Assembly (NCBI RefSeq): GCF_002075285.3
Contig: NZ_CP021983.2
Coordinates: forward strand, 1,260,001-1,292,000
Direction of reading: 5' to 3'
DNA length: 32,000 bases
Source of the DNA: Halomicronema hongdechloris C2206
Lineage (GTDB): Bacteria; Cyanobacteriota; Cyanobacteriia; Phormidesmidales; Phormidesmidaceae
Part shown: positions 5,134-31,144 of the stretch, one piece after another
Position numbering within the stretch: the first letter of the stretch is position 1
How the letters are laid out: each line of letters begins with the position of its first letter
Notes under the pieces: generated by a model
Told to the model about the DNA's origin: nothing
What the model saw: only the letters and a program-made list of their open reading frames with translations
Databases searched by the model: none
Made by a program: the position numbers and the translations under genes

Positions 5134-6864
5134 ATGGGGTGGGGGAGAGTAGGCTGGGGTCTGGCGAGTAGCTGGATCGTGATCACGGCATCAGGGGCGA
5201 CTGCCGTCGCCAAGTCATCTCCGGTCCCCACGGGTGTCCAACCCGCAGCACGCTATGCCCAGGTGGATCCCAGCCAGGATCGTTTCCCCGATACAGATGT
5301 CCCGGAGCCCATGCCCTTGCAGGATGGCCCGGCCCTGCCGACGCCGAGCCAGCCGACGGCGCCCCCACTGCCTCAGGAAGAGCAACCGCCAGGGGAGCAA
5401 ACGGTCTATGTGGAGCAGATTCGCGTCTTGGGTAGCACCGTCTTCAGCCCAGCAGAGTTGCAGGCGGTGGTGGCCCCCTTTGCGGGCCAGACTCTGACCT
5501 TGGAGGGATTGACCCAGGCGGCCAATGCCGTGACTCAGCTCTACCTCAACCGGGGATACATTACCTCCCAGGCGGTGGTGAGCGACCAGGTGGTAGCAGA
5601 TGGCATCCTCGAGATCCAGGTGATCGAGGGGGCCCTAGAGGCGATCCAGGTGGAGGGCACCGAGCGCCTAGACGACTATGTGCGCAGTCGCATTGCCCTG
5701 GCTGGTCTGCAGCCCCTGAACCAGTTTCGCCTGGAAGACCAGTTACGCCTGTTGCAGGCCGATCCCCTCTTCGCGGACATTACCGCTCGCCTGCGGGCGG
5801 GCAGTGGCCAGGGCCAGAGCATACTGGTGGTGCAAGTAACGGAAGCCCCTGCCTTTGCCGCCAACCTGGTGGCGGATAATTATTCGCCCCGCAGTGTGGG
5901 GCAAGAACGCATCGGAGCGGTGCTGCAATATCGCAATCCGGTGGGCTGGGGCGATACCCTGTTGGCCTCCGCCTATTACTCCAGTGAGGGGGGCTCTAAG
6001 CTCTACGAACTCAGCTATCGGGTGCCCCTGAATCCCATGAATGGCACCCTGCAGCTGCGGGCCGCCCCCAATGAGTTTCGCATCGTCGATGAGGCCTTTA
6101 CTGGTCCTGGCCTGAATATCGAGGGCAGCACCGAGATCTATGAGGCCATCGTGCGGCAGCCCCTGATTCGTACCCCGCGGCAAGAGCTGGCCCTATCCCT
6201 GGGGTTCCGCTACCGGGATGGAGAAACGCTGATTAATAATTTGATCACCGGTGAGAACCGCACCAGTGTGGTCAGTTTCGGCCAGGATTATTTGCGGCGG
6301 GATCCCCAGGGGGCCTGGGCGGTGCGATCGCAATTCCGCTTCGGCACCGGGCTGTTCGATGCCACCGATGGGGCCGAACCCGACGGCCAATTTTTCAGTT
6401 GGTTGGGGCAACTGCAGCGGCTGCAGGTCCTCAGTCCCGATCAGGTGCTGCTGCTGCAGGCCGACCTGCAGTTAGCCAATGATAGTCTGCTGGGATCCGA
6501 GCAGTTCTTCGTCGGCGGTGGCCAATCGGTGCGGGGCTATTTCCAGAATCAGCGCTCCGGCGACAACGGCGTGCGATTTTCCATAGAAGACCGGATCACC
6601 CTAGTGCGGGAAGATGACGGTAGAGTGCTCCTACAGACAACCCCATTTCTGGACTTAGGCTACGTCTGGGCCAAGGATGCCGATATCAACCAATTGACCG
6701 ACGATAATCTATTACTGGGCACTGGCGTCGGCTTCATCCTCAATATGACGCCCGATTTAACCACCCGCTTAGATATAGGCGTGCCCCTGATTACCCTGGA
6801 CGAACAGGCCGGCGATCGCCCCTCTAGGGTGCAGGTTCATTTCAATGTCAACTATCGCCTCTAG
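5134..6864 (+). CDS. ShlB/FhaC/HecB-family two-partner-secretion outer-membrane transporter (TpsB)
   Basis: Signal-like N-terminus and a Pro-rich linker. POTRA-type segment (IRVLGSTVFSPAELQAVVAPFAGQTLTLEGLTQAANAVTQLYLNRGYITSQAVV). Long beta-barrel-like C-terminus ending in an aromatic-rich strand (VHFNVNYRL). Confidence 0.75.
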   Translation: MGWGRVGWGLASSWIVITASGATAVAKSSPVPTGVQPAARYAQVDPSQDRFPDTDVPEPMPLQDGPALPTPSQPTAPPLPQEEQPPGEQTVYVEQIRVLGSTVFSPAELQAVVAPFAGQTLTLEGLTQAANAVTQLYLNRGYITSQAVVSDQVVADGILEIQVIEGALEAIQVEGTERLDDYVRSRIALAGLQPLNQFRLEDQLRLLQADPLFADITARLRAGSGQGQSILVVQVTEAPAFAANLVADNYSPRSVGQERIGAVLQYRNPVGWGDTLLASAYYSSEGGSKLYELSYRVPLNPMNGTLQLRAAPNEFRIVDEAFTGPGLNIEGSTEIYEAIVRQPLIRTPRQELALSLGFRYRDGETLINNLITGENRTSVVSFGQDYLRRDPQGAWAVRSQFRFGTGLFDATDGAEPDGQFFSWLGQLQRLQVLSPDQVLLLQADLQLANDSLLGSEQFFVGGGQSVRGYFQNQRSGDNGVRFSIEDRITLVREDDGRVLLQTTPFLDLGYVWAKDADINQLTDDNLLLGTGVGFILNMTPDLTTRLDIGVPLITLDEQAGDRPSRVQVHFNVNYRL

Positions 6865-9486: not shown

Positions 9487-9537
9487 GATGGACGTAACTG
9501 GACTCGAACCAGTGACCTCCACGATGTCAACGTGGCG
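9487..9537 (-). repeat. attL-type direct repeat: orphan 3' fragment of tRNA-Val (51 bp)
   Basis: Exact 51/51 identity to 31094-31144, which is nt 26-74 of the intact tRNA-Val plus 2 downstream nt. Identity breaks at 9486 and 9538. Confidence 0.95.
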
Positions 9538-9666
9538 TTCTTAACGCTCATAACTAGCTGCTGGCAAGCATTTTGGAAGCTGGACTAGTACACCGCGGCA
9601 CCATCCCGCACCCATCTGTAATGATCAGAATTTTATTTTTTTTCAACCCTGACCTATATAGAAAAA

Positions 9667-9795
9667 CCCCTACACACCCTACACAACTCCTACACTGCTT
9701 AGGTTTCAGCCCTACACGCATCCCTACACGGTTTTTCCCAACCCCTACACACCCTACACAACTCCTACACTACTTAGGTTTCAGCCCTACACGCA
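9667..9795 (+). repeat. CTACAC repeat array (9 copies) organised as two 54-bp near-identical units 75 bp apart; candidate arm-type integrase/Xis sites
   Basis: Units at 9667-9720 and 9742-9795 (CCCCTACACACCCTACACAACTCCTACACT[G/A]CTTAGGTTTCAGCCCTACACGCA). Same motif in inverse orientation at 29708-29814. Confidence 0.7.
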
Positions 9796-13575: not shown

Positions 13576-14388
13576 GTGTGGGCTAATATGTTGAGCGGAA
13601 CTATCGGCATAATCATTATCATGAAGTCCCCTAAACTTTTGATTGCCAGTTGCTCTCTATTGATGCTGGCTTTAACTTCTTGTGGTCTCGTCCCTTTTAG
13701 TAAAACCTCTTCATCTCAGGAAACACCAGCAGCTGTTGCAGAAGAGGCATCAAGTGATGAAGATCAGCCAATAGACGATTCCTTTGGAGAAGCTGTCAAT
13801 ACAGCTATGGCAGCCGCAGAAGCCGCGCAAACTGCGCAAACTGCTGATGAATGGGGCAATGTGGCCGAGCTGTGGACCAAAGCGATTGAGCTGATGAAGG
13901 CTGTTCCAGAGTCGAGCGAGAATTATCAGACGGCTCAGCAGAAGGTTGAAGAATATCAGAGAAACGTAGATTACGCAGCAGATGCTGCTTTCGCTGAGAA
14001 AAAAGTCTCTTCAAAATACAGTGAAATTCACCGCTTTTATGGCCAGCCGTTGATGAACGTTGCAGAGAACTTTGGGGCTTCACTTGCTCAGAGTGGTGAC
14101 CGCTTCACCAGTGAGGATGAAACAGCCGAGTTTTATGCAGAAAGTAGCAATGGTGAATCGATTAGTTATGTCGAAGTAGGTGTAAAGTCACTCGGCCCAT
14201 GTCAACCCAATGAAGCTATTGGACTTAGTAAGACGATAATGGCTCTCGGTGACGTACCTTCCACAAACAAAGTCCGGGAAACGGAATCATCAGGGTATGT
14301 AACTTATCGGGTAGAAGGTTTAACGGTCAAAACCTCATGTTTGTATGATGGCGACTGGTACACAATAAGTGTGTCAGCTGATGATTAA
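13576..14388 (+). CDS. lipoprotein, unknown function
   Basis: Probable start is 13621 (MKSPKLLIASCSLLMLALTSCG, a lipobox LTSC). AT-rich. Contains a W..A...W..AI.LM..VP..S..Y..AQ.KV..Y helical motif. Confidence 0.65.
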   Translation: MWANMLSGTIGIIIIMKSPKLLIASCSLLMLALTSCGLVPFSKTSSSQETPAAVAEEASSDEDQPIDDSFGEAVNTAMAAAEAAQTAQTADEWGNVAELWTKAIELMKAVPESSENYQTAQQKVEEYQRNVDYAADAAFAEKKVSSKYSEIHRFYGQPLMNVAENFGASLAQSGDRFTSEDETAEFYAESSNGESISYVEVGVKSLGPCQPNEAIGLSKTIMALGDVPSTNKVRETESSGYVTYRVEGLTVKTSCLYDGDWYTISVSADD

Positions 14389-14715
14389 GGCTTAACGGTT
14401 CTATGGGTGCGGTCATGACCAGCGGCAACCGTCTGCACTTTGGTGTCTTGCCGCCCCCTGGTAAGGCGGTGCTCTAGATAGCCCAGCCCTGTTCCTCTGA
14501 ACGCACGGCTAAAGCGCCTCCATCCAGCAAGACACCACTAAACAAAGCTGAGATAGATGCGTGGGAGAGGGCATACGGGCAATAGACGTTAGTTCATCTG
14601 GGTTGAGAGCTACATCTTGCCAATATGAAAGCCCTTATAAAGATTTTGTGAGCATCATGGCAACTTCTCTGGCTTCAATAAAGAGTTAGGTAGGCTTGTA
14701 AAAGCTTGTATTCTT

Positions 14716-15279
14716 TTGAAGTCTGTTCTAATGAAATCTTCGATTATCCCAGCCTCTCTCTTTTTGACTGTTGCCGTTATAGGATCTTCCGCGCCTGGGA
14801 TTGCCCAAGTTTGTTATGAGGATGGGAGTGGCAACGTAGTTGATTTAGGGGGGCTTTGCGATAGTTATGAAGACCGCAGCAGCTCTTCTAGCCAGGCACC
14901 TGAGCCTTCATCTAATAGCGCTCCATACGGGAATAGCTTTGTATATGATTCATCTCAAACACCTTTCCCGTCGTATCTGTTTGATAGCGATTTAGATAAC
15001 GAGGATGCTCATCAAACAGACCAGGTGAGCTATGGGAATAGCGCGCTATTTGTTTATGAAAATCGGTACATAGAAGATTTCTCGCAGTGGCCTTATACAG
15101 CCAGTGCTACCAATCATGCTGAATGGAGCTATATAGACTGTAGGACAGGCTGGAGAGGTCTTAAGTCTTCCCCTATGGCTGGTACATCACGGACGTTCTT
15201 TATCCCCCCAAGCCAGACAGAACGGCCTGATCTCTATCGCAATATTTGTAGAGAGGCAGGGCTATCCCCTCAGTTTTGA
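14716..15279 (+). CDS. secreted protein, unknown function
   Basis: Signal peptide (probable start 14731, MKSSIIPASLFLTVAVIGSSAPGIAQV). Ser-rich linker. Several Cys. No recognisable domain. Confidence 0.55.
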   Translation: MKSVLMKSSIIPASLFLTVAVIGSSAPGIAQVCYEDGSGNVVDLGGLCDSYEDRSSSSSQAPEPSSNSAPYGNSFVYDSSQTPFPSYLFDSDLDNEDAHQTDQVSYGNSALFVYENRYIEDFSQWPYTASATNHAEWSYIDCRTGWRGLKSSPMAGTSRTFFIPPSQTERPDLYRNICREAGLSPQF

Positions 15280-15320
15280 AAAATCGCATCAGCTAGGGCG
15301 CGGCTAACCATCGTCGTTGT

Positions 15321-15572
15321 TCAGGCGGCGACGCTCGACTTTCCCAAGCGGCGATCCAGATCCTTCACCTGCTCCGACAGCGCTGCGATCGCATCGGCCA
15401 GCGTTTCACCCTGGCTCTCAACCAGCCCGTCGAGCTTGCCATCGAGATAGTCGTAGACCAGTGACTTAAGGACGGCAGAGGCGTTGCTATTGCGACTCTT
15501 GGCCCGTGCCTTGAACTGGTGCCAGGTGTCCTTATCAATCTTAAATGTCGCCAGAATGGTCTCATCAGCCAT
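15321..15572 (-). CDS. ribbon-helix-helix (CopG/Arc/MetJ-type) protein
   Basis: ILATFKIDKDTWHQFKARAKSRNSNASAVLKSLVYDYL fits the beta-strand/helix/helix RHH pattern. Lies immediately downstream of the recombinase gene. Confidence 0.7.
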   Translation of the reverse strand: MADETILATFKIDKDTWHQFKARAKSRNSNASAVLKSLVYDYLDGKLDGLVESQGETLADAIAALSEQVKDLDRRLGKSSVAA

Positions 15573-15582
15573 GGCTGTCGCC

Positions 15583-15610
15583 TCTATACTGCGTCTAGGC
15601 CAAGTATAGA
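15583..15610. promoter_or_regulatory. 28-bp palindromic site TCTATAC-N14-GTATAGA with central TCTAGG
   Basis: TCTATACTGCGTCTAGGCCAAGTATAGA. Same architecture and length as the site at 16381-16408. Lies between the recombinase stop and the RHH start. Confidence 0.6.
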
Positions 15611-15612
15611 CA

Positions 15613-16311
15613 TTAAGACCAGAGCCCCTTAAACTGGGTGGGACTCATGGCGGTGTAGTGGGCCGTATGGCGGATGTTGGCGTGGCCCAGCCAGGCTTGG
15701 ATTGTGCGGGTATCGACGCCCTTATTCGCCAGGTAATAGCCGCAGCTATGGCGAAGCATGTGGGCATGGATGGGAAAACGGAATAGACCCTTGCCGGTGC
15801 GCTTGATCATGGCTGAAATCGCACTGCTGGCCAGGGGAGCCCCGGTGCTGCTGCAGAATATAAAAGGACTGTCGGCGTTTTCCCGTTCCAGCCGTCGCAG
15901 CCCCCTCAGCTCATCCCCCTCTAGGTAATGGGTGGAGTCGTGAGAGCCCTTGAGCCGACGGATCAAGATAGTGCCCTGCTGAAAATCCACATCAGCCCAG
16001 CGCAGATCGGCTATTTCTGAGACCCTGAGCCCGTGCCGATAGCCCATCAGCACAATCATGTGGTTGCGGTGACCGTTGCGGGCCGTGCGCTTAGCCGCCG
16101 TCAACAGCTGGTCTATTTCAGCCGGGGTCAGATACTCGCGCGTCCGCCCCGTCGCCTCGTGGCCTTTGTTAGGACTGGTGCCTGCCTTGGCCAACCGAGG
16201 GCGGACACCAGGGAAGGGCAGCACTGAGCCCTTTTGTTCAACTTTCGGTTCTTGGGCGTCTAGATTCATGGTGGCTCGATCTCCTGTCGCAGCGATACTG
16301 GGCGGGGCCAT
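15613..16311 (-). CDS. small tyrosine recombinase (FimB/FimE-like size, catalytic domain only)
   Basis: Catalytic signature present: GLRVSEIADLRWADV (Arg), HAHMLRHSCGYYL (His-x-x-Arg), WLGHANIRHTAHYT (His...Tyr). No separate arm-binding domain. Confidence 0.85.
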   Translation of the reverse strand: MAPPSIAATGDRATMNLDAQEPKVEQKGSVLPFPGVRPRLAKAGTSPNKGHEATGRTREYLTPAEIDQLLTAAKRTARNGHRNHMIVLMGYRHGLRVSEIADLRWADVDFQQGTILIRRLKGSHDSTHYLEGDELRGLRRLERENADSPFIFCSSTGAPLASSAISAMIKRTGKGLFRFPIHAHMLRHSCGYYLANKGVDTRTIQAWLGHANIRHTAHYTAMSPTQFKGLWS

Positions 16312-16380
16312 TTGTTCAACTTTTGGGTCAGAAGTTAAACAAAACCTCTATACCTAATCTAGACGCCCTGAGCTTATATG

Positions 16381-16408
16381 TCTATACAATTTCTAGAATC
16401 TGTATAGA
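16381..16408. promoter_or_regulatory. 28-bp palindromic site TCTATACA-N12-TGTATAGA with central TCTAGA
   Basis: TCTATACAATTTCTAGAATCTGTATAGA upstream of the recombinase gene. An extra half-site-like CCTCTATACCTAATCTAGACG lies at 16345-16365, and CCTCTATAC also precedes the 15583 site. Confidence 0.6.
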
Positions 16409-16421
16409 TAATTTGTCTAGA

Positions 16422-17468
16422 CTAGGGCTCAGCGCCGATAATCATGGGTTTGATCCAGATCAGCCTTCGCGACCTGCGACCGGCCCCGACCGGCTGATTT
16501 CGCCAATGCCCCCGTCGCCAATGCTCCCGCTTCCCACTTCCGCCACCCGCGCGCTTGCCCTCGCGGGGGGAACGAAGCTCCGATTTGGGCATGGATATAA
16601 CACGCGGCTGCCAATAGCGAGTCTGAGATCTCCTTGGTGGATTGCCTTTGGGCGTTGCTGGGGGATTCCCCTCCCCCGATATCAGTGAGGGCTGGTAGCT
16701 AGCGATTAGCAGTAGCTGCAACAGGATATTACGCACATGGTGCGTGAATTCGAGGTCTGCCCCGGTTAGCTCACTTGTGCCAAGGGTCGGAGGCCCTTGG
16801 ATGAGCGAGCCATCATTAGCGATGTCGAAGCCGCTAAACAGGGTACTGCAACGGGTATCCAGGGTGCTCCATTGCCAGTTGTACCGATAGTCGTTTTGGT
16901 GGGGGAGCCACGGGAAACGATAGGTGTTGCCCGCTAACTCATACTCACCCTGACTTAGTTCGGGATGTTCGCGATCCGATATATGCACCACTGCCCAGTC
17001 CACGCATCCTCCATCTGGGGCAATAAGGGCGTTGCTAGGCAGCAGAAATAGGGCTGTGCGAATAGGCGGTTCATTCAAGCCCGCCAGTAGTTTGTTGTCA
17101 GCGGCGAAATCAATGTCTGTATGCTCGCAGGCCCGTAACACTGCCGTGCGTACCAGATACAGAGGGGCATTCTGAGATAGCCACAAACCGCATCGATGCC
17201 CATGCAGGAGGGTGGCGCGATCTACTCCCTCCACCGCATTGATGAGTACTGCCATTGCAGTGCATAGCTCATCCCACCGCGCAAACCCTTTGGGAATCCG
17301 GTAGGGGCGACATTGCTTAATGGCGGCTGCCACTGTGCCGTATTTGCTAGTTAGCGCTTTTGCGGCTTGCGATCGCGAGTGCCATACATCCATCTTTGAC
17401 GCTCTCCGTGTATAGCTGGAGACCCCCGTGCGGGGGCAATAAAGGGGGTGGGAGAATCTCCCAGTCAA
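16422..17468 (-). CDS. orphan protein with Arg/Gly/Trp-rich basic C-terminal tail
   Basis: The probable start is MDVWHS at 17393 (GGAGAG about 9 nt upstream). C-terminus reads ...GKREHWRRGHWRNQPVGAGRRSRRLIWIKPMIIG. No family recognised. Confidence 0.6.
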   Translation of the reverse strand: MTGRFSHPLYCPRTGVSSYTRRASKMDVWHSRSQAAKALTSKYGTVAAAIKQCRPYRIPKGFARWDELCTAMAVLINAVEGVDRATLLHGHRCGLWLSQNAPLYLVRTAVLRACEHTDIDFAADNKLLAGLNEPPIRTALFLLPSNALIAPDGGCVDWAVVHISDREHPELSQGEYELAGNTYRFPWLPHQNDYRYNWQWSTLDTRCSTLFSGFDIANDGSLIQGPPTLGTSELTGADLEFTHHVRNILLQLLLIASYQPSLISGEGNPPATPKGNPPRRSQTRYWQPRVISMPKSELRSPREGKRAGGGSGKREHWRRGHWRNQPVGAGRRSRRLIWIKPMIIGAEP

Positions 17469-17627
17469 TCTCGCAAAGTCACTCCCCCCCGCAGGTCGGG
17501 GGCGGGCAAGTCATGAGCAAGCCTGGGGCAAGTCAGGTCCACTCCCCCCCGCAGGTCGGGGGCGGGGGCGCAGTACGGGCTCAACACAGGCTCACAAAAC
17601 ACACTCCCCCCGCAGGTCGGGGGCGGG
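17420..17627. repeat. CRISPR-like mini-array / GC-hairpin repeat array (3 conserved + 1 degenerate repeat)
   Basis: CACTCCCCCC(C)GCAGGTCGGGGGCGGG at 17480-17506, 17540-17566 and 17602-17627. Degenerate hairpin CCCCCGTGCGGGGG at 17422-17437. Period 58-62 bp. The intervening ~33-42 bp segments are mutually unrelated. No cas genes in the window. Confidence 0.5.
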
Positions 17628-17666
17628 GGTTAGGTCCGCGATATTGCGGATATTGCGGACCTAACC
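17628..17666 (-). terminator. strong hairpin (12-bp perfect stem, 15-nt loop) after the long operon
   Basis: GGTTAGGTCCGC-GATATTGCGGATATT-GCGGACCTAACC, 13 nt beyond the stop of the 81-aa gene. No clear U-tract, so the terminator role is inferred. Confidence 0.45.
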
Positions 17667-17678
17667 AAGAATGGTTAG

Positions 17679-17924
17679 TCACCACTCCATCAGGGTGCCG
17701 ATCACGTTGCCACCCCAGCCCTGCTGGCCAGGCGCGCGGCTGAGCAGCGTTATAACGCCGTTGCCATCAACGTGGGTATCGGTAATCTTCTGCCCGCCGA
17801 ACCAATAATCAGCGGCCATCTGCAACGCCTGCTTATAGCTAGGAGCTTCAAAAGTGCGTCGCCAGTCGATATCGTCCGGTAGGTTGTGGGTACGTCGCGC
17901 GAATGTGTAGCTAGTAGTTGTCAT
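17679..17924 (-). CDS. hypothetical protein (81 aa), last gene of the long operon
   Basis: ATG-initiated ORF 12 nt downstream of the GIY-YIG gene. No domain recognised. Confidence 0.5.
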   Translation of the reverse strand: MTTTSYTFARRTHNLPDDIDWRRTFEAPSYKQALQMAADYWFGGQKITDTHVDGNGVITLLSRAPGQQGWGGNVIGTLMEW

Positions 17925-17936
17925 TGTCTATGTCTA

Positions 17937-18251
17937 TTACTCCATTACGCCCCGGTGTTTACCCGGGTCAGCGGTCTGCAGCTTGCAGCACCAACAGAGC
18001 CGTGGTGCGTTCTTTTGTGCCTTCAGTGCTCGCTCAAAATCCCTCCCCATATTTGGCCAGGTGCAGACGACATCGAACTCAATACCGCGCTCATGAGCCA
18101 CAGCACAGAAGCGACTCCCTCGCCCCTTACGGTGTTGTTTAATCCGCTTGTCGATGTCAGTTGCGTAGCCGATATAATGCCTCGCTCGATTCGGTGTGGA
18201 AGGATCGAGCGGCTGCCTGAAGTGCAACAGGTAACAGCCCCTCATCATCAA
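17937..18251 (-). CDS. GIY-YIG domain nuclease-like protein
   Basis: CYLLHF...ARHYIGYATDIDKRIKQHRKGRGSRF...ERGIEFDVV...FERALK... fits the GIY...YIG...R...E layout. C-terminal CWCC. The start ATG overlaps the stop of the upstream micro-ORF. Confidence 0.65.
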   Translation of the reverse strand: MMMRGCYLLHFRQPLDPSTPNRARHYIGYATDIDKRIKQHRKGRGSRFCAVAHERGIEFDVVCTWPNMGRDFERALKAQKNAPRLCWCCKLQTADPGKHRGVME

Positions 18252-18424
18252 AATTCCCCTCCATCGGCACGGCCAAAGGCAAACGCCTGGTTGACGTGCT
18301 GCTGCCCTGGGGATGGCTGATCCAACTGCCAGAGCCGGTTAATGACGGCTATCCGATAGGCAGAGTCACTGTCGATGCGGCCCCACTGCAGTCGGTTGGC
18401 TTGGCGAATGTCGGTTAGGTGCAT
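18248..18424 (-). CDS. micro-ORF (58 aa), below ORF-track cutoff
   Basis: Hand translation: MHLTDIRQANRLQWGRIDSDSAYRIAVINRLWQLDQPSPGQQHVNQAFAFGRADGGEF*. Its TGA overlaps the ATG codons of the GIY-YIG gene. Confidence 0.45.
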   Translation of the reverse strand: MHLTDIRQANRLQWGRIDSDSAYRIAVINRLWQLDQPSPGQQHVNQAFAFGRADGGEF

Positions 18425-18440
18425 GAGTGGAGTCCTTTAG

Positions 18441-18617
18441 TCAAAACTGGGGGGCGCTCATCTGCAGCAAACTAGGCGCTTCAGCCTCGAAGTTTGAGAT
18501 CGCAGCTCCCCGCGTTGGGTGACCGTCTTCGCTGCAGAAGTCCTCGGTCTCCCAGTGCCAACCGTGGCCGGGAATCTCGTAGACCTGCAGCTGGTCTCTC
18601 AGTTCATCGATCGTCAT
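18441..18617 (-). CDS. micro-ORF (58 aa), below ORF-track cutoff
   Basis: Hand translation: MTIDELRDQLQVYEIPGHGWHWETEDFCSEDGHPTRGAAISNFEAEAPSLLQMSAPQF*. Its ATG overlaps the last 14 nt of the hydrolase gene. Confidence 0.45.
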   Translation of the reverse strand: MTIDELRDQLQVYEIPGHGWHWETEDFCSEDGHPTRGAAISNFEAEAPSLLQMSAPQF

Positions 18618-19812
18618 CTCTTATATGCTTCAGTAGCTGATCTACTCGTCTTCTCTGATCAGCGGGGACATTCATGGGGGCCCCGCCCAACTCCCTGCGC
18701 GATTCATTCAGGGCAGCAATGCGGGCGGCGACAAGCTGCTCAGGTGTGGGCGCGTGCGTTGGCAAGTGTTTGATCAGGCGACTCCCGGCATCCGGAGACT
18801 GATTCCAAATATCCAGGGCAGCTGCGATCGCAGGCTTAGACAGTGGCTGCCCCCATTTTTCTAGAGCCCGCTTCTGAAGGTCCCGTTCAGCCTGTTGTAG
18901 TCGCGCTAGTTGTTTCTGGTCGGCTTCCTCTGGAGTGCTGGCCCCGTGTTGATACGAAAAACTGCCCATGTTACGGGCACCATTGCCGGGGTCCCTGTGG
19001 CCGTAGTAGGCGCTTGTGGGGTCACAGTTGTCATCTCTGGTTCCCTCTGCTGCACCGATGGCACAGGTTTTCTCAGTGTTACTGAGTTCACTAAAGGGAG
19101 CTACCGGCTTGCTGCCGGTTAGCGCCCAGATCAGTGGTCCATTGGCAGGGTGATAATGCGCTCCGGATGCATCCCGCTCACGCCAGTCTAGATGGGGGCC
19201 AGTACCGTTCCCGGTCGCCCCGGTTTTGGCAATGATTTGCCCGCCACGGTGCCAACCGTCGGCGCAGCGGGAGAGGTGTAGAGCCTGGAATTTGCGGGCT
19301 GGCAGCGACTCGCTCTCGATATCAGCTACCAATCCTCCGCCATTGCCATCACGCCAGCATCGCACTCTGACCCGTTTGTCTTTATCCGCTGGAGCGTAGA
19401 TGGTGGTGCCGCTAGGGGTAGCGAGATCTACGCCACGGTGCTGATTGCTGCAGCCCTCACACGGTGCCTTGCGTGGCCCATAGCCACTGGTGACGGGATG
19501 CCCAGCAATCTTCTCCCCCGCCTGAATGGGCTCACCGAAATCAGGCGCGATCGCGTCACCCACCGCGTCAGCTGATTCGGTGACCCGGGTCACCATATTG
19601 AGCCCCTGGGCGATTCTGTCATTGAGGGAGGGGACCAGCACCGGAGCCAGCAGCAGGGATGATAGGCCTACACAGATAGCCGTGATAGACCAGTCCCTTC
19701 TTTGCCATTGATTAACCAAGCTCCACTGCAGATCGGGCGATAGTTCCTCAAAGGTTGGTCTAATTGGTCTAACGGGTGAGCCTTGCATCCTGCACCTCCC
19801 CGTCGTCGGCAT
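18604..19812 (-). CDS. bifunctional cell-wall hydrolase: M23 peptidase domain + lambda-lysozyme-like (lytic transglycosylase/GH104-like) domain
   Basis: N-terminal TM. M23 motifs HRGVDL (HxxxD) and GATGNGTGPHLDW. C-terminal IGAAEGT...GSFSYQ...LDIWNQSPDAG parallels phage lambda R (LAWSEGT...GAGRYQ...SNIWASLPGAG). Confidence 0.7.
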   Translation of the reverse strand: MPTTGRCRMQGSPVRPIRPTFEELSPDLQWSLVNQWQRRDWSITAICVGLSSLLLAPVLVPSLNDRIAQGLNMVTRVTESADAVGDAIAPDFGEPIQAGEKIAGHPVTSGYGPRKAPCEGCSNQHRGVDLATPSGTTIYAPADKDKRVRVRCWRDGNGGGLVADIESESLPARKFQALHLSRCADGWHRGGQIIAKTGATGNGTGPHLDWRERDASGAHYHPANGPLIWALTGSKPVAPFSELSNTEKTCAIGAAEGTRDDNCDPTSAYYGHRDPGNGARNMGSFSYQHGASTPEEADQKQLARLQQAERDLQKRALEKWGQPLSKPAIAAALDIWNQSPDAGSRLIKHLPTHAPTPEQLVAARIAALNESRRELGGAPMNVPADQRRRVDQLLKHIRDDDR

Positions 19813-20185
19813 AAATTACATCAATGCTCAGGCCTGATTCGGTGAGCCAACGGTAGGTGTCGTTGGCCAGCTGGCAGGTGGGAGGCCCTAACCATTGCAC
19901 GGCGATCTGTTCAGTCTCGCCGGTGAGGGCTCCCCGTAATTGCTCCTGGGTATTGCCAACGGTATTCTCGCTGAGCACTTGCTGGCAGGCCTCGAGTCGC
20001 GGATCATCCTCACCAGGGGGCTGTAGTTCCCGCCAACCCCGATCGAGTTTGGCGATCTGTGCCTTGGCCAGCCAGACAGGATTGATAAACCGTCCCCATC
20101 CTGGGGCGGCCATATCGGCTATCAGGATGAGGAGTGCTGCCGGCACAGATGAGATCGCAATGTTTCTGGCTTTGGCTCGGTTCAT
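19769..20185 (-). CDS. membrane-anchored hypothetical protein
   Basis: N-terminal TM (IAISSVPAALLILIADMAA). Its ATG overlaps the upstream stop (ATGA). Confidence 0.5.
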   Translation of the reverse strand: MNRAKARNIAISSVPAALLILIADMAAPGWGRFINPVWLAKAQIAKLDRGWRELQPPGEDDPRLEACQQVLSENTVGNTQEQLRGALTGETEQIAVQWLGPPTCQLANDTYRWLTESGLSIDVIYADDGEVQDARLTR

Positions 20186-20706
20186 TGGTCTACTGGGACG
20201 GCGCGGATCACTGGTCGGGATTCGACCGGGGTTCCCATTTCCTCAGTGCCCAGCATTACGTCATGAATTCCACCGGCTGCTGCCCGAGTAGGGGGAGCCA
20301 CAATCGCGGCCAGGTTACAGCCACTAACGACGGGGTTCCAAATATCGCCTCGACATTGCAGCACATCACCCCGCATTAGATTGAGTCCTCCAGATGCTCC
20401 GGCTAGGCCCAGCCAGACCGATGCACCGGTGACAGCCATGGTCTGTAGTGGGCGATGCCTGAGGCACGATAACCAGGCTCTGATAGCCATCAGAGAGCCC
20501 ATGTCGTCAGTGGCGGTATCAATAAAAAACAGCGGTTTCCGCTTATTTGTCGCATCAAAATACCCGCCATCTGCGATATTGCTTCTAGGAGCATTGCGAC
20601 GCCTTCCAATACCACCGCCACTCTGGTAGGGCGCTAGGCCACCACCGGTGCCGCCAACTGTGCTGAATTCTACGTCGATAACATCGTTATTTTTCGGACC
20701 AACCAT
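20182..20706 (-). CDS. hypothetical Gly-rich protein
   Basis: 174-aa ORF overlapping both neighbours. No domain recognised. Confidence 0.45.
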   Translation of the reverse strand: MVGPKNNDVIDVEFSTVGGTGGGLAPYQSGGGIGRRRNAPRSNIADGGYFDATNKRKPLFFIDTATDDMGSLMAIRAWLSCLRHRPLQTMAVTGASVWLGLAGASGGLNLMRGDVLQCRGDIWNPVVSGCNLAAIVAPPTRAAAGGIHDVMLGTEEMGTPVESRPVIRAVPVDQ

Positions 20707-22000
20707 TGTCTTGAGCCTCCAAGATATCGATCATGGTTTTGTATTGGTCTAGAGCGTCTTTGTAGGCCTGAGACCCCCCTTTCTTAACGCCCCATAGGGC
20801 GAGTAGGATTTGAGCCTGGTTGAGGCCCATCTCACGGCAGTCTCTGACCCGGTTCAGAATCTCAGGGGTAGAAAAAGGGGGGTCTGAACCGCCTGAACCG
20901 AACCGGTTCAGACCTGAACCCTGACTCGTGTATCCCTTGCCATATAGTCGGTTCAGCGTTTGAACCATATCTGAACCTCGGTTCAGATCCTGAACCGTCC
21001 CCCCCACTGTCACACTTGGAACCTTGTAGCTCAGTAGGGGCATCCACTCCCCTAGATCTGAGTGATAAAAGATGGCTTTTTTAGGGCTGAGAGATTGCTG
21101 AAATACCAAAGCATCCGGTTTCGTTTCGATGCTGCGATACGACTTCATCAAACTATGCAGATGCTCAGTCGATTCCGGTGTCTCAATCGCCAAAAGTCGA
21201 AGCGGGGCGCGGTTGCCACCAGTAAGGCCTAAATCAGCTACAAGTGGCGATTGGGTAATCATCCATAGGTGCCGGTCATCGGTCTCGCCGCTGCTCATTT
21301 CTACCTTGATGGTGGGGATGAGGAAATCCCGATACCACTTTGGCTGCATGGCATCTAATTTGATGCCCTCATCGATGACCAGTACAGTGGGTCTCGTCGG
21401 TTGCCGTCGCCATTCATGGATGAAGTCGGTCAGCTGCTGGGCGATAGTTTCGTCATTGGGCGCGTGGTCTTCCAGCATTACCGGCAAAATGCGATCACAT
21501 CCATCCCAGTAGCCCATCTCATTCTTGTGTGGCTTCGGCTGAATTACCCAGATCGTTGCCTCGGGGCGGATTTGCTTCACATAGCGCCAGGCCTGAGCAA
21601 TGACGACGCCTTTACCGGTGCGAGGATTGCCGGTGATCAGTGTCGGGTGTAGGTTATTGGCCAACACTCCGGCCACGTCGATATACCGTTTCGGTGGCTC
21701 CACACCGGGCGGTGCCTCGATGGTTTGCCCTGATGGTTGTGCCTGGCTATCGTCAGCAATGGTCACCGGCTTGGGCTGTTGGTCCATCAGCCACCAGCCC
21801 AGGAAACCTAAGGCAGTCAACCCTAGGGCTACCGCAGGAAGGCGGCCAGGGCGCTGATACTGCACCTCTACCGCCTGACCATTGGCAAAGGCGGCCAGGT
21901 CGTCAGCCGTCAGTGTGGATAGCTGTGGCGCTGTAGTAGCAATCCCTAGGGACGCCACCCCGCAGCCTGCAGCAGTTGCCAGGCGATAGATCGGCTTCAT
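20687..22000 (-). CDS. membrane-anchored P-loop NTPase with C-terminal HTH-like domain
   Basis: Two N-terminal hydrophobic segments. Walker A-like ITGNPRTGKGV. Walker B-like PTVLVIDEG. G/S-rich linker. C-terminal helical GLNQAQILLALWGVKKGGSQAYKDALDQY. Architecture, not demonstrable homology, resembles FtsK/TraB. Confidence 0.6.
   Translation of the reverse strand: MKPIYRLATAAGCGVASLGIATTAPQLSTLTADDLAAFANGQAVEVQYQRPGRLPAVALGLTALGFLGWWLMDQQPKPVTIADDSQAQPSGQTIEAPPGVEPPKRYIDVAGVLANNLHPTLITGNPRTGKGVVIAQAWRYVKQIRPEATIWVIQPKPHKNEMGYWDGCDRILPVMLEDHAPNDETIAQQLTDFIHEWRRQPTRPTVLVIDEGIKLDAMQPKWYRDFLIPTIKVEMSSGETDDRHLWMITQSPLVADLGLTGGNRAPLRLLAIETPESTEHLHSLMKSYRSIETKPDALVFQQSLSPKKAIFYHSDLGEWMPLLSYKVPSVTVGGTVQDLNRGSDMVQTLNRLYGKGYTSQGSGLNRFGSGGSDPPFSTPEILNRVRDCREMGLNQAQILLALWGVKKGGSQAYKDALDQYKTMIDILEAQDNGWSEK
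20884..20996. repeat. cluster of ~10 GGTTCAG/CTGAACC 7-mers inside the ATPase coding sequence
   Basis: ggTCTGAACCgcCTGAACCGAACCGGTTCAGacCTGAACC...cGGTTCAGcgtTTGAACCatatCTGAACCtcGGTTCAGatcCTGAACC. Includes the palindrome GAACCGGTTC. Confidence 0.8.
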
Positions 22001-22644
22001 GGTTGCTCTCTAACCTCCCATGCCTTGGATTCAGCCTCAGCACTCCGTAGGCGCTGACGGCTTTCGACTAGGTTCTGAATGGCTAGCTGGCTGAGGTTGG
22101 CTTCAGGCTCAACCGGGGCAACTGATTGTCGGGCCAGCTCGATGGCCTGAACCCGACTGACAGCGCCTAGCATCTGCTGCCAATCGCGATCCGCTTTGGC
22201 CCGCTCGATGGATGCGATCGCATCTCTAGCAAACTGGTCTAGGGCGCAATGAACCGATTGACTGAAGCAGGACGCTTCCGGGTCTGTGGCCTGGCGTTCG
22301 GCCTCTAGCAAATAGCGCCTAGCTTCCTGGCTGAGTAGCTGTTCCCTAAAAGCCTGCAGCTGCTCTGAGGATTGATAGATCAGCTCTTCAGTGCTGCTCT
22401 CAGCCCCGGCCACAATCGCATCTTTATCCAGCTCCATCGATGGTTCTGGCTGGTAGGTCTGGCCACCGGTGCCGGTGAATAGGGCAATACCTAGCCCCAG
22501 GACAGCTATGCTGCCGATGCCACCGGCAATTAAGACATCCTGACGCTGCCACCATTTAGGGGCTGGCTGGTCGATGCGGACAATCTCACGGCGAAACTCA
22601 GGCGGCACGGTGAATGGGGTTTCACGAGTGTCTTTCTCTTTCAT
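21997..22644 (-). CDS. single-pass membrane coiled-coil protein
   Basis: TM helix (VLIAGGIGSIAVLGLGIALF) followed by a helical charged region. ATGA overlap with the downstream ATPase gene. Confidence 0.5.
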   Translation of the reverse strand: MKEKDTRETPFTVPPEFRREIVRIDQPAPKWWQRQDVLIAGGIGSIAVLGLGIALFTGTGGQTYQPEPSMELDKDAIVAGAESSTEELIYQSSEQLQAFREQLLSQEARRYLLEAERQATDPEASCFSQSVHCALDQFARDAIASIERAKADRDWQQMLGAVSRVQAIELARQSVAPVEPEANLSQLAIQNLVESRQRLRSAEAESKAWEVREQP

Positions 22645-22647
22645 GGC

Positions 22648-22965
22648 TTAGCCCCCCGTAGGCATCAATGAGGCGATTCCCTCAATCAACCGCACGGCAT
22701 CGCTAGCCCCGTTTAGCTCTGAGTCCAGCTGGGCCAGCAGTTGCAGCAATCGAGGGTGAGAGGTAAATGAATAGCCATTGTTCTCGGCAATGACGTGTAG
22801 GTACTCGCTATGGCCGTCCATGGTGACCATGTAGGCAGCCTCGGCCAGGATGGCAATTAGGGCAAGGCGCTCGGGCGTCGGCATCTTCTGCAGCTTCGAC
22901 CCATATAGGGTCTCTAGCTGGGCCACAGCATTGCTATGAAAGAAGCTGGTCAAACACTGCATCAT
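22648..22965 (-). CDS. hypothetical protein (105 aa)
   Basis: ATG ORF 3 nt from both neighbours. No domain recognised. Confidence 0.45.
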   Translation of the reverse strand: MMQCLTSFFHSNAVAQLETLYGSKLQKMPTPERLALIAILAEAAYMVTMDGHSEYLHVIAENNGYSFTSHPRLLQLLAQLDSELNGASDAVRLIEGIASLMPTGG

Positions 22966-26143: not shown

Positions 26144-26204
26144 TTTTACCACAATGTCGGGAAGCCTTTAATAGATAGCATCTCAGCGCATTTTCCTGGT
26201 TTTG

Positions 26205-26256
26205 TGTACTAAAAATAGAACATTTATAGAACATTTTTTGTACTAAAAATAGAACA
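26205..26256. repeat. AT-rich direct repeats TGTACTAAAAATAGAACA x2 (34-bp period) plus extra ATAGAACA
   Basis: Exact 18-mers at 26205-26222 and 26239-26256. ATAGAACA at 26226-26233. This is the most AT-rich patch of the GC-rich part of the element. Confidence 0.6.
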
Positions 26257-26761: not shown

Positions 26762-29167
26762 TTGCGACCTGATAACCGCCACTGGACGGATGGGCAGGAA
26801 TCGCCAAAATATTGCAGCCCGCGCGGCGATATTGACCGGCAGGCACTGTGGGTGCCACCCGGTGCAACGCTTAGCGACCTGGCCGCCGTCACCGAGGGGT
26901 GGAAGGACGCGGCGATCGCCACCATCCGCACCGGGCGGCCCGTTGGTGCAATTGCGGGGGTTTCCCATATCGCCAAAACGCTGCCTGCAGGTGTTGGGGT
27001 AACAACCGTTTTTGACAGCGATGGCCTGACCAACGCCAACGTCATGCAGGCCCTGATCAGGGGGGGGCTGCACCTGGGCGGCAAAATTACGCTCATCCCT
27101 CGGGATATTGGGGAGAAATGTGGGGCCACTGAATTTTTTGGCAGTGGCCGGACACAGTCTGATTTTGACCAATTGTTGGCGGGCGCGCGAAACCCCCGAG
27201 CGTTTTTCCTGCAATGGTTGGGGTATCTCAGCGATGCTCCCCTGCCCAAAAACTGCGACACGCTGACGGCCCTGTATCAGCGGCTGTGGCGGATCGCCTG
27301 GCATCTCGACAGAGACTGCCATGAACTGCGGAGTCGGGTTGAGGCGTTCATCCAGGCCCATTCTCGGGCCAATGGCGTCAAATTGAATAAACCCGATGTG
27401 CGAGCCATTCGCAGTGCGGCCACAAAACCACTCTGGGAGCGGGAATCGCAACGGCAACTGGCAGAGCGCAGGGCGGCGGCGACAACTCAAACAGATTCAT
27501 CCTGGACTGTCAAACGCTGTTTCGATGATGCGATCACCCTCACCCCCGACGGGGTCCGACTGCCTCCAACGGGCAAATTGGCGGCCCTGATGGAGCAGAG
27601 CTGGTCGAAACATTTGAAATGGCGGCTCGATTTTTCCAGTTTTTATGCATACGGCAGGACGACACCTGGGCTGTGGGAGCGGGTCAGCGATCGCGAGGTG
27701 AAGGAACTCGTGCAGCGGGAGCTAGATGCTGCTGGAACTGATGGGGAATATGGTTTGACCGTGGTTGATAATACTGTGGCCCTGTTGAGCCAACGGGTCT
27801 CGGTGCGGCAGCTGCCACAGGCCCACGGCTACATTCCATTCCGCAATGGGGTGTTGCGGGTTTCGGACAGGACCCTGCTGGAGCACAGTCCTGACTACGG
27901 GTTCACCTGGCAATTGCCCTATGATTACATCCCCGGGGCAGAGTGTGGCCCGGTTGTGGACTGGCTGGGGTGGGCGGTGAACGGAGACAAAACAGTTGTC
28001 CAACTCATTCGCGCCTGTCTCAAAGCGATGATTTTGGGACGTACAGATTTTCAGCGTTATCTCGAAATCGTTGGGCCTGGTGGAACAGGGAAGGGCGTGT
28101 TAATTCGTCTAATTCAGGCCCTGCTGGGGAGGTCGAACACCGTCAGTACCTCTCTATCACGCATCGCCAACAGTAGGTTTGAGACAGGGCGATTCATGGG
28201 GAAACGATTGATTTTCATCCCTGATGCGGACTACAACCCCACGGCCGTCGACACGCTCAAACAATTGACCGGTGAGGATTTTATTCCGTGGGAGCGCAAA
28301 AACGAGAACTCTGATTATTGCGATGGGTTCACCCTGGAGGGGTGGGTGATGGTGGCGACCAACAGGGAAATTGTTGCCAGCGATCATACGAATGCACTAT
28401 TCCGGAGGCGAATTCCAATCTATTTCAACCACGTGGTTCCTGATGGCGAGCGGCGGGATCTAATTAGTTTTTGCCCCGATGGCAGTCTACGAGGCGAGTT
28501 TGCCGACCTCCTGCCGGGGGTGTTCAACTGGGTGCTCGACATGCCGGATAAATTGATGGAACGGTATATCAAAAACCCGCGAGAGTACGTGCGCTCGATG
28601 GGTGAGTTCCAGGCCGAGACATTACTCGAAACCAACAGTGTGGCGGCATGGGTGGACGAAAATGTTGTTTATCAACCGGGCGAATTTGCAAAAATCGGTG
28701 GCAAAAACAACCCCGCAGACAGCTGTCTATACCCGAACTATGTGGCATGGTGCGAGGCTACGGGCAGCAAGACCGTGGGTCTCAGGACATTTGTGAAAGA
28801 CTTCAAAAATTTGTTTTGTAATGAATTGGGGTTGGATGTCTCGAAACGGCGCGATCGGAACCGAGGCTCTGGGTTTGACAATATTCGCCTGCGGATTTGT
28901 GGGGGCGATGGGGAGCCCCGAGAGGATGAGCCCTGCACGGTTGAGCGGGCATTGGGCGGCTCAACCCAAAACGATACCAACGGTGATGGCGATGGCATTT
29001 CATTGTCGAAACAGGATTTAAAACAACTTCTAAACCTCTATTCTGATGACCCACCAGTTTTTGAATCCGAGCTGCAGCGATTGTCAGGGCTGCAACGGGA
29101 TCATCTCTACCAGGAGTTGCCTGAACTCAGGCCCATGGCGGGGGAGGTGAATGGGCATGTTAGGTGA
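26762..29167 (+). CDS. replicative primase-helicase: Toprim-like (DUF3854-type) domain + D5_N-like + P4/D5-type SF3 helicase
   Basis: QLRPDN...KYCSPRG, then VTEGWKDAAI...GVTTVFDSDG (Toprim-like). Then YIPFRNGVL..., Walker A GPGGTGKGV, Walker B RLIFIPDAD, motif C VMVATN. Confidence 0.8.
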   Translation: MRPDNRHWTDGQESPKYCSPRGDIDRQALWVPPGATLSDLAAVTEGWKDAAIATIRTGRPVGAIAGVSHIAKTLPAGVGVTTVFDSDGLTNANVMQALIRGGLHLGGKITLIPRDIGEKCGATEFFGSGRTQSDFDQLLAGARNPRAFFLQWLGYLSDAPLPKNCDTLTALYQRLWRIAWHLDRDCHELRSRVEAFIQAHSRANGVKLNKPDVRAIRSAATKPLWERESQRQLAERRAAATTQTDSSWTVKRCFDDAITLTPDGVRLPPTGKLAALMEQSWSKHLKWRLDFSSFYAYGRTTPGLWERVSDREVKELVQRELDAAGTDGEYGLTVVDNTVALLSQRVSVRQLPQAHGYIPFRNGVLRVSDRTLLEHSPDYGFTWQLPYDYIPGAECGPVVDWLGWAVNGDKTVVQLIRACLKAMILGRTDFQRYLEIVGPGGTGKGVLIRLIQALLGRSNTVSTSLSRIANSRFETGRFMGKRLIFIPDADYNPTAVDTLKQLTGEDFIPWERKNENSDYCDGFTLEGWVMVATNREIVASDHTNALFRRRIPIYFNHVVPDGERRDLISFCPDGSLRGEFADLLPGVFNWVLDMPDKLMERYIKNPREYVRSMGEFQAETLLETNSVAAWVDENVVYQPGEFAKIGGKNNPADSCLYPNYVAWCEATGSKTVGLRTFVKDFKNLFCNELGLDVSKRRDRNRGSGFDNIRLRICGGDGEPREDEPCTVERALGGSTQNDTNGDGDGISLSKQDLKQLLNLYSDDPPVFESELQRLSGLQRDHLYQELPELRPMAGEVNGHVR

Positions 29168-29423: not shown

Positions 29424-29699
29424 ATGCAGATGACCCTGCTGACCACTGATGAGGCGTGTGAACTCCTGCGCTGTAAGCCAGACTCCCTTAAGACCCTGCG
29501 CGATAGCTGGATTCACGGCGTCCACTACGTTAAACGCGGTCGCGGCCCCACGGCCCCAGTGCTCTACAACCGAGAATTGATTCTCGACTGGCTGGTCAAC
29601 CAGGATGCTCCCGAAACCCACCAGGCTGCAATCGAACACTTCAGACGCAGCCTGCCCAGTGGCCAAAAACGAACCATTTCACGAAAACCGAAAGGCTGA
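29424..29699 (+). CDS. xis: excisionase / AlpA-type HTH (MerR-like HTH_17) protein
   Basis: LLTTDEACELLRCKPDSLKTLRDSWIHGVHYVKRGRGPTAPVLYNRELILDWL matches the Xis/AlpA helix-turn-helix pattern. Adjacent to the arm-type repeats and the integrase. Confidence 0.7.
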   Translation: MQMTLLTTDEACELLRCKPDSLKTLRDSWIHGVHYVKRGRGPTAPVLYNRELILDWLVNQDAPETHQAAIEHFRRSLPSGQKRTISRKPKG

Positions 29700-29707
29700 C
29701 CCCCTTG

Positions 29708-29814
29708 CTGTGTAGGGGTGTGTAGGGGTCCTGTGTAGGGGGCAATCTCAACCCCTACACGCTGAAACCCTTGCTGTGTGGGGCTTGTGTAGGGCGTGTA
29801 GGGGTGTGTAGGGG
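29708..29814 (-). repeat. GTGTAGG(GG) repeat array (6 good + 1 degenerate copy, plus one CCCCTACAC in the opposite sense); candidate arm-type sites
   Basis: GTGTAGGGG at 29710, 29720, 29733, 29796 and 29806. GTGTAGGG at 29787. CCCCTACAC at 29752. This is the inverse complement of the motif at 9667-9795, and the GGTTTCAGC neighbour motif is also shared in inverse orientation. Confidence 0.7.
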
Positions 29815-29853
29815 TTATCCCTATACTCATAGGGGACACGCAAAAAAAAATAT

Positions 29854-30951: not shown

Positions 30952-31093
30952 AATTCACGGCACCATTCCGCACCCATTAAACAGCCAAAAGCCCCATTCT
31001 TTCGTCAAATTCCGGGAAGCTTCCGCACCCATTTCCCCGTTTTGCCAGCCCTATGCAATCGTTGAAATGCCTTGAAGCTACGGGTTTTCAGGG

Positions 31094-31144
31094 GATGGAC
31101 GTAACTGGACTCGAACCAGTGACCTCCACGATGTCAACGTGGCG
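31094..31144 (-). repeat. attR-type direct repeat within tRNA-Val
   Basis: Exact copy of 9487-9537. Spans tRNA nt 26-74 (anticodon arm to discriminator) plus 2 nt. Confidence 0.95.

Follow-up and report, generated by a model that had tools for sequence, protein, structure and literature searches.

A cas-less repeat-spacer module downstream of a small acidic-protein gene in a family of cyanobacterial mobile elements

Mini-arrays of CRISPR (short palindromic repeats that are clustered and regularly interspaced) have reportedly been described on viruses and mobile elements by Faure et al. 2019 and Medvedeva et al. 2019. The locus analysed here lies in a stretch of 32,000 nucleotides (nt) of the cyanobacterium Halomicronema hongdechloris C2206 (contig NZ_CP021983.2, positions 1,260,001 to 1,292,000; this whole stretch is referred to as the window) and consists of short hairpin repeats alternating with unique spacers, next to a gene for an acidic protein of 81 amino acids (aa). 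The known mini-arrays carry one or two spacers on viruses, their repeats are identical to those of the host CRISPR, and most of their spacers match related viruses (PMC11656645). RNA anti-CRISPRs (Racrs) are defined by similarity in both sequence and structure to the repeats of a CRISPR subtype, together with a promoter within 250 base pairs (bp) (PMC10651486, Camara-Wilpert et al. 2023).

The window array is a repeat-spacer module without cas genes that belongs to a cyanobacterial mobile-element family and is located just downstream of the 81-aa gene. It is real, non-random and recurrent, and both its geometry and its pattern of variation are CRISPR-like. The main new result is that the array is tied to the 81-aa gene, as related repeats were found downstream of the homologues of that gene. 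This pairing of gene and array was unexpected, and the mechanism considered below is a proposal. The array is filed neither as a CRISPR array nor as an RNA anti-CRISPR, and membership in any CRISPR family is withheld. The features of the region are:

17421-17437: degenerate distal hairpin (R0), GACCCCCGTGCGGGGGC, from reading of the sequence and folding
17480-17506: repeat 1 (R1), CACTCCCCCCCGCAGGTCGGGGGCGGG, from reading of the sequence, pattern search and covariance model
17507-17539: spacer 1, 33 nt, unique by local alignments and searches
17540-17568: repeat 2, identical to repeat 1 over 27/27 nt, plus GG, from the same three sources as repeat 1
17569-17601: spacer 2, unique, of 33 nt with a 29-nt repeat 2 and of 35 nt when counted from 17567
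17602-17629: repeat 3 (17602-17627 plus GG), one C fewer than repeats 1 and 2 and with the GG continuation, from the same three sources
17628-17666: strong palindrome of 39 nt with 17-bp arms (-28.4 kcal/mol, z = -8.4), from folding
17679-17924, minus strand: gene for the 81-aa acidic protein XM38_012300, the gene common to all related array-bearing loci

Three near-identical direct repeats of 26-27 bp thus alternate with unique spacers, beginning at the positions given in a preliminary description of this DNA (17480, 17540 and 17602), and they are unique within the 32 kb. If the GG is counted, the repeats measure 26-29 nt; they are sharply bounded and all run in the same direction. The repeat starts are 60 and 62 nt apart and the hairpins 60 and 61 nt apart. 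A 22-mer from the repeat, searched with up to three mismatches, matched only the three array places in the 32 kb and was matched in 0/100 shuffles. The stem pattern CCCCCG-N5-CGGGGG and the motif CGGGGGYGGG were likewise confined, within the window, to the array. Pairwise local alignments of the intervening segments (42, 33 and 35 nt) and the 39-nt palindrome all gave shuffle p ≥ 0.1, and the description of the spacers as mutually unrelated was therefore upheld. The array occupies a 285-nt gap, bounded on one side by the 81-aa gene's stop codon and on the other by the next gene's ATG (17393), and interrupts a long string of minus-strand genes. Folding placed six hairpins inside this gap.

For the degenerate fourth copy that had been proposed at 17421-17437, a hairpin was found with the same C5G/CG5 stem as in the repeats, 63 nt before the R1 hairpin. 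Its loop is shorter (2-4 nt) and it was missed by the covariance model of the repeats, so it was counted as a weak fourth copy. The repeat had also been described as a hairpin with flanking handles. The hairpin stood, but on the plus strand the handles pair with each other, giving a near-complete 10-bp bulged hairpin (-18.4 kcal/mol). On the minus strand, the repeat folds into a 6-bp stem with a 5-nt loop and few unpaired bases on either side.

Plain tandem duplication was rejected as the origin of the array: Tandem Repeats Finder detected no period of ~60 nt, the spacers are unrelated, and control arrays repeat the whole unit. The controls, four hairpin arrays from metagenomes that agree with the window array in stem and period, repeat the entire 60-64-nt unit, 'spacer' included. 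Plain tandem arrays of 61-64-nt units with CCCCCG-N5-CGGGGG were observed on metagenome contigs at L086 10144-10332, L029 1315-1575 and L069 1-195 (L numbers denote individual loci) and served solely as controls.

Homologues of the 81-aa protein, with 65-84% identity, were found on cyanobacterial metagenome contigs. The cyanobacterial GCGATCGC palindrome is present on every homologue contig examined apart from L150, the shortest stretch. The 81-aa gene is the only gene common to the window and these contigs, the exceptions being a small open reading frame (ORF) that L148 has too and, in L145, a GIY-YIG homologue. The repeats found behind the homologues were:

L149: GTCGCCCCCATGCGCTCGGGGG[T/C]GGGCT (28 nt) in three copies, separated by unique 37- and 36-nt spacers (the L149-type repeat, GTCGCCCCCATGCGCTCGGGGGYGGGCT)
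L143/L144: two copies of GTCGGTCCCATGCGGGGGTGGGGGCTAC, 28 nt, with a 34-nt palindromic spacer
L147: one full copy, then an unrelated palindrome, then a degenerate (partial or altered) last copy
L148: one copy

No clear repeat copy was present in the visible stretch of L145, L146, L150 and L151. The array-bearing relatives carry one to three copies, with unique spacers of 34-37 bp. Their repeats share with that of the window the arrangement C5-centre-CGGGGGYGGG (CTCC in place of C5 in L147/L148, and TCCC in L143) at ~60% identity. The conserved part is the arms, C5 ... CGGGGGYGGG, in every variant, and the centre varies (CAGGT, ATGCGCTC or ATGC). The orientation of the window repeat relative to those of the relatives is ambiguous, with 18 versus 16 matches, because the repeat is nearly palindromic. 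In the relatives, the 81-aa gene is followed by an intrinsic terminator, a conserved stretch of ~55 nt, the array and then a convergent gene of the LuxR helix-turn-helix type. A covariance model built from nine repeats and run against 538 kb of loci recovered only its own input repeats.

A palindrome directly after the G-rich repeat end was observed in three loci: in the window at 17628-17666, where it sits between repeat 3, which it abuts, and the stop codon of the 81-aa gene; at L143 5954-5987, where it is itself the 'spacer'; and at L147 ~985-1013. The three palindromes have arms of 10-17 bp and AT-rich centres, and their sequences are mutually unrelated.

Compared with the mini-arrays of viruses and mobile elements, the window array is alike in its one to three spacers, its location on a mobile element, the lack of cas genes in the window, the 27-29-nt hairpin repeats, the unique spacers of ~33-37 nt, the degenerate terminal copy and the content that differs between close relatives. 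No cas genes had been noticed nearby, and among the scanned window proteins none was found; neither these nor other defence families gave a convincing match. For these scans, the ORFs flanking the array (13576-22965) were searched with Pfam, PHROGs, PADLOC or NCBIfam, and most other large ORFs with Pfam, some also with PADLOC/PHROGs. The array differs from mini-arrays in that neither CRISPR-matching repeats nor virus-matching spacers were found. The suggested type I-E/I-F geometry held for shape (hairpin repeats of 27-29 nt, spacers of ~33-35 nt and a degenerate end copy) but not for sequence, which gave no match to any CRISPR family of Rfam. In the same way, the suggestion of a mini-array carried by a mobile element was borne out in that the array does lie on such an element and recurs at the same relative position in relatives; but the two defining marks of a mini-array, repeats that match a real CRISPR-Cas system and spacers that match related elements, did not appear in the searches run.

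AcrVA2 targets Cas12a, and Cas12a repeats are AT-rich, unlike the window repeat. Compared with Racrs, the locus is alike in its repeat-like hairpin, its position on a mobile element without cas genes, and its place beside a gene for a small acidic protein and a member of the AcrVA2 family. The co-location with anti-CRISPR genes that is looked for in Racrs was found, the adjoining 323-aa gene being AcrVA2-like. It differs in that Racrs are usually single units, compared with up to three or four units with spacers in the window array.

The best reading, to which a probability of roughly 0.3 was given, is that of an RNA locus without cas genes, derived from CRISPR or mimicking it, in an anti-defence neighbourhood. 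Transcription of the region would take place on the window's minus strand, together with that of the 81-aa gene or following it, and each repeat would form a GC hairpin in the RNA. These hairpins would be bound or cut by a Cas6-type enzyme of the host, and the resulting RNAs could act either as decoys that soak up Cas proteins, as RNA anti-CRISPRs do, or as guides, like those of a viral mini-array.

Several lines of evidence support this reading. The spacers are of near-constant length (33-35 nt in the window, 36-37 nt in L149 and 34 nt in L143), and the repeats are identical or nearly so within each array. The spacers are mutually unrelated, in contrast to those of the four control arrays, and the minus-strand fold of the repeat, a 6-bp stem with a 5-nt loop between short single-stranded ends, suits the reading too. 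The arrays show polarity: R0 in the window and the degenerate copy in L147 are each the copy most distant from the 81-aa gene. Array content is hypervariable between conserved flanks: identity between L147 and L149 is 97% as far as repeat 1 extends and returns to 87% at the last repeat and beyond, with nothing shared in between. The location also fits, on a mobile element with an adjoining AcrVA2/FinQ-family gene and a small acidic partner protein; many anti-CRISPR proteins are small and acidic. A layout in which an acr gene precedes an RNA anti-CRISPR in a single transcript has been published, and the 1-kb surroundings of RNA anti-CRISPR candidates are enriched for acr genes (PMC10651486). 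H. hongdechloris itself has type I and type III cas operons, with ten annotated repeat regions elsewhere in the genome (PMC6416890).

If this reading is true, the locus would rank among the earliest cyanobacterial examples of an RNA-level anti-CRISPR or a mini-array to be described, and it would provide a new candidate small protein partner and a handle on the conflict between CRISPR and mobile elements in these bacteria. Under any of the readings, the 81-aa gene paired with the array is a conserved and easily searched marker of a poorly known family of cyanobacterial mobile elements. The case also illustrates that 'CRISPR' calls made on three repeats need comparative evidence before they are either believed or dismissed.

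A number of results weigh against a CRISPR-derived or CRISPR-mimicking origin. Cyanobacterial type I-D and III repeats typically end in a 3' tag of the ...TTGAAAC/G type, which the window repeat lacks. The 20-nt repeat core formed no array in 185,579 species-representative genomes searched for exact matches, a collection that possibly did not include the host genome outside the window. It gave 13 single matches there, 11 in named non-cyanobacterial taxa and two in unclassified metagenome-assembled genomes, which by a back-of-envelope estimate is about the chance level for GC-rich genomes. The two-copy core pattern was found in 0 metagenome contigs, and exact searches of IMG/VR returned 0 matches to the core. 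The CRISPR-DR families of Rfam matched neither the window nor the related arrays, even at E ≤ 10.

The spacers fared similarly. The BLASTN search that had been suggested for them was run against 50,697 phage and 72,556 plasmid records at E ≤ 10 and yielded chance matches only. Exact spacer 22-23-mers had 0 matches in IMG/VR, it being noted that the phage, plasmid and IMG/VR databases hold few relatives of this element. The spacers also had 0 matches in 0.9 Mb of loci that included related elements.

The expected transcription and RNA structure are also affected. No sigma-70-like promoter was called on either strand, in the window or in L149, by a consensus scan of a kind that cyanobacterial promoters often escape, and in the relatives an intrinsic terminator stands between the 81-aa gene and the array. 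The plus-strand repeat is almost fully paired, the hairpin is lost in the fold of the L147/L148 repeat variant, and one 'spacer', that of L143, is a palindrome. Further searches were made with larger or related queries. Phages and plasmids gave chance matches only when searched by BLASTN with the array region or the L149 array, and the L149-type repeat matched two coding regions in IMG/VR, by chance.

A more specific form of the CRISPR-mimicking reading, which is doubtful, would make the locus a two-part anti-CRISPR module of an undescribed kind: the 81-aa protein together with a downstream multi-unit array that mimics CRISPR. In this equally doubtful scheme, the repeats would co-evolve with the Cas6/Cascade of the host, and units would perhaps be added by host Cas1-Cas2, so that the identical repeats and the unique spacers of constant length would follow from such addition. 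The predicted isoelectric point of the 81-aa family is 4.6-6.0 in 7/8 homologues. Profile scans of the Pfam/PHROGs/PADLOC/NCBIfam type assigned the 81-aa protein to no family. The best fold match in the PDB for its model (predicted local distance difference test score, pLDDT, of 67) was the anti-CRISPR AcrIE2, at E 0.5-1 and a template modelling (TM) score of ~0.5; this match is non-significant and serves as a lead only. A PDB sequence search with the same protein returned a weak SH3-like resemblance. No relatives of the element were found in IMG/VR when its 437-aa, 232-aa and 81-aa proteins were used as queries.

On the other side of the array lies the gene that gives the neighbourhood its anti-defence character, with a putative control region upstream of it:

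16422-17393, minus strand: gene for the 323-aa AcrVA2/FinQ-family protein XM38_012290, which on that strand directly follows the array
17444-17452: GGGGGTGGG, a copy of the motif kept in all repeats, overlapping a 13-bp palindrome, GGGAGAATCTCCC (17450-17462)

The preliminary description had placed the start of a 348-aa gene at 17393. The 348-aa ORF starts at TTG 17468, and it is the 323-aa protein that begins at ATG 17393; this product is 100% identical to XM38_012290 of H. hongdechloris C2206. Its precomputed annotation is PF26125, AcrVA2-like. A C-terminal motif, HWRRGHWRNQ, is invariant in 17 homologues, with H291, R293 and H296 as the H-x-R-x-x-H residues. The only PDB match was AcrVA2 (7ci1, E = 0.2), in which the motif aligns with HIRRGHW. 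AcrVA2 itself depends on residues H286, R288 and H291, as it loses its function upon the substitutions H286A, R288A and H291A; its family, of which FinQ is a member, occurs widely on mobile elements and mainly where the genome lacks Cas12a (bioRxiv 10.1101/2022.11.29.518452). Judged from its annotation and motif, the 323-aa protein belongs to the AcrVA2/FinQ anti-CRISPR family.

The array is not tied to this AcrVA2-like gene, because such repeats are absent upstream of its homologues (30-45% identity) in four other contexts, one of these contigs showing only 77 nt there. For the same reason, the notion that the repeats form a 5' leader of the downstream gene, or iterons belonging to it, was rejected. 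A candidate promoter may lie upstream of the gene. On the minus strand, TTGACT (17468-17463) and TTTATT (17443-17438) are separated by 19 nt, with GGGAGAATCTCCC between the hexamers, ~45 nt upstream of the AcrVA2-like ATG. The palindrome may be a candidate operator in a candidate repressible promoter of the acr type for this gene; the promoter consensus scan did not call the TTGACT/TTTATT site.

Nearly as likely as the CRISPR-type reading, and similarly tentative, is that the repeats are double-stranded DNA sites, of the core type for a tyrosine recombinase or for another dimeric protein, at a junction where modules are exchanged. Each repeat would then be an imperfect palindrome of 27-29 bp, with C-rich and G-rich arms of 9-11 bp around a centre of 5-8 bp, and the AcrVA2-like gene would be cargo that has been swapped in. 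Known tyrosine-recombinase core and dif-like sites (Xer/dif; integrative mobile elements exploiting Xer, IMEX; and plasmid dif, pdif) resemble the repeats in being imperfect palindromes of ~28 bp with inverted arms and a 5-8-bp centre. The conservation of the arms in every variant, with a variable centre, is as this explanation would have it, and a spacing of 60-65 bp corresponds to about six helical turns.

The comparison of relatives also favours such sites, in that similarity breaks at the repeat. L147 and L148 are 99% identical up to the repeat end and unrelated beyond it, with the first differences in the right arm. A tyrosine recombinase gene in L148 has its stop codon right at the repeat, which is the classic layout of an integrase gene and its att site, and overall a tyrosine recombinase gene abuts or is near the repeat in 2/5 loci. 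In the window, such a gene lies 1.1 kb away on the variable side:

15613-16311, minus strand: gene for a 232-aa recombinase resembling tyrosine-type DNA invertases

If the repeats are indeed recombination sites, they would mark a hotspot at which anti-defence cargo such as the AcrVA2-like gene swaps between elements.

Set against this, no recombinase or DNA-binding protein, and thus no cognate recombinase, is common to the loci, the shared gene being only that for the acidic 81-aa protein, and the array repeats have no sequence resemblance to dif. Active direct sites 60 bp apart should delete one another, and we know of no precedent for three direct recombinase sites at such spacing with tiny unique spacers. 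The constant 33-37-nt length of those spacers and the degenerate distal copy are left unexplained by DNA sites, and no second repeat lies beyond the AcrVA2-like and recombinase genes to close a 'cassette'. The window recombinase, moreover, has a candidate target of its own, a 13-bp inverted repeat around its start codon. No link between the 232-aa recombinase and the array was found, and the array as a target of this enzyme was rejected, as no inverted repeats bracket it. The inverted repeat at the recombinase gene, GGGCGTCTAGATT, is perfect over 13 nt (16254-16266 and 16356-16368) and brackets the start codon at 16311 on the minus strand; possible roles are an invertible switch of the fimS kind or an attenuator hairpin.

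It is unlikely that the repeats are hairpins of a 3' untranslated region, that is, a cluster of terminators, insulators or RNA-stabilising structures that ends the minus-strand operon and shields the AcrVA2-like gene from read-through. The six hairpins in the 285-nt gap would suit such a role. On the minus strand, repeat 3 followed by GAGTGTGTTTTGTG was called terminator-like in the scan, and no other terminator follows the 81-aa gene in the window; the relatives have a canonical one at this place, and theirs begins with the same CCCCCGCCCC motif as is present in the window. Repeat 3 was the only copy so called, however, as copies 1 and 2 lack a U-tract. The relatives carry a proper terminator and, after it, the array as well, and terminators would need neither identical sequence, nor sharp 27-nt boundaries, nor unique spacers of constant length.

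Less probable again is that the repeats are small selfish palindromes, such as repetitive extragenic palindromes (REPs), small dispersed repeats or miniature inverted-repeat transposable elements, inserted several times locally and without function for the element. Very small mobile repeats are said to have been described in cyanobacteria by Elhai et al. 2008, and pairs of GC-rich hairpins are very common in metagenomes: a loose stem pattern occurred at at least 120 metagenome loci and at 4 viral loci. Among the matches listed, several recurrent REP-like families were seen, and none had the loop or flanks of the window repeat. REPs and bacterial interspersed mosaic elements resemble the array repeats as GC-rich imperfect palindromes that are intergenic and form small clusters. 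They differ in that the array repeats are not dispersed. No other copy, degenerate ones included, was found in the 32-kb window (up to three mismatches, loose stem and covariance model), and the 20-mer core was dispersed in no genome scanned, so that the REP-like alternative offered earlier was not sustained. A related 27-kb contig has GGGGGYGGG once outside its array, and the covariance model found no further repeat in the 14.9 kb searched. The copies are all direct and evenly spaced, and the L149 spacers do not correspond to uninterrupted sequence of the 97%-identical L147. No REP-associated tyrosine transposase (RAYT) or other transposase gene is associated with the repeats, and those of the window and L149 lack the conserved GTAG (CTAC ends the L143 repeat only).

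Least likely of all is an iteron cluster or centromere-like site for replication or partition of the element, which would suit identical, direct, intergenic and element-specific repeats of variable copy number on an element encoding a D5-type primase-helicase, ParA and a ParM-like protein, but for which unconstrained spacers at a period of 60-65 bp would be unusual, the loci have no replication or partition gene in common, and better candidates exist in the AT-rich 23-nt repeats at 26200-26256 and the 8-nt repeats upstream of parA in L143; the array as partition site or replication origin was rejected on account of these candidates.

The array lies inside a 21.6-kb integrated element. The element is delimited by a 55-nt direct repeat (9487-9541 and 31094-31148, 98% identical) that copies the 3' part of a tRNA-Val gene (31093-31170, minus strand), the site of integration, and Rfam identified a partial tRNA copy at 9497-9556. 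An integrase gene (29854-30951, minus strand) adjoins the tRNA-Val, and its product carries an Arm-DNA-bind_2 domain. Besides this integrase, the element encodes the D5-type primase-helicase, the ParM-like protein, ParA, an M23 peptidase, a GIY-YIG protein and the 232-aa recombinase.

Clusters of CCCTACAC(A) / GTGTAGGG repeats were observed at either end of the element, just within it and in inverted orientation, at 9665-9795 (plus strand) and 29688-29815 (complement). They are probably arm-type binding sites of the integrase, and as these CCCTACAC repeats fill that role at both ends, the array was rejected as a set of arm-type sites.

Upstream of the primase-helicase gene (26762-29167) are the two AT-rich 23-nt direct repeats, TTTTGTGTACTAAAAATAGAACA, at 26200-26256 and 34 nt apart, which are a candidate replication origin of the element. 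L143 has six 8-nt repeats resembling AATGCAGT (6732-6794) directly upstream of a parA gene. These differ from the GC-rich repeats and probably serve the L143 element as its partition operator or centromere. Conflict genes were also observed on the related contigs, namely one for a Tad2-like (anti-Thoeris) protein at L145 11847-12086, one for a TIR_2-domain protein at L144 4605-6080 and one for HicB at L143 10383-10727, which fits the idea of elements that collect defence and anti-defence cargo.

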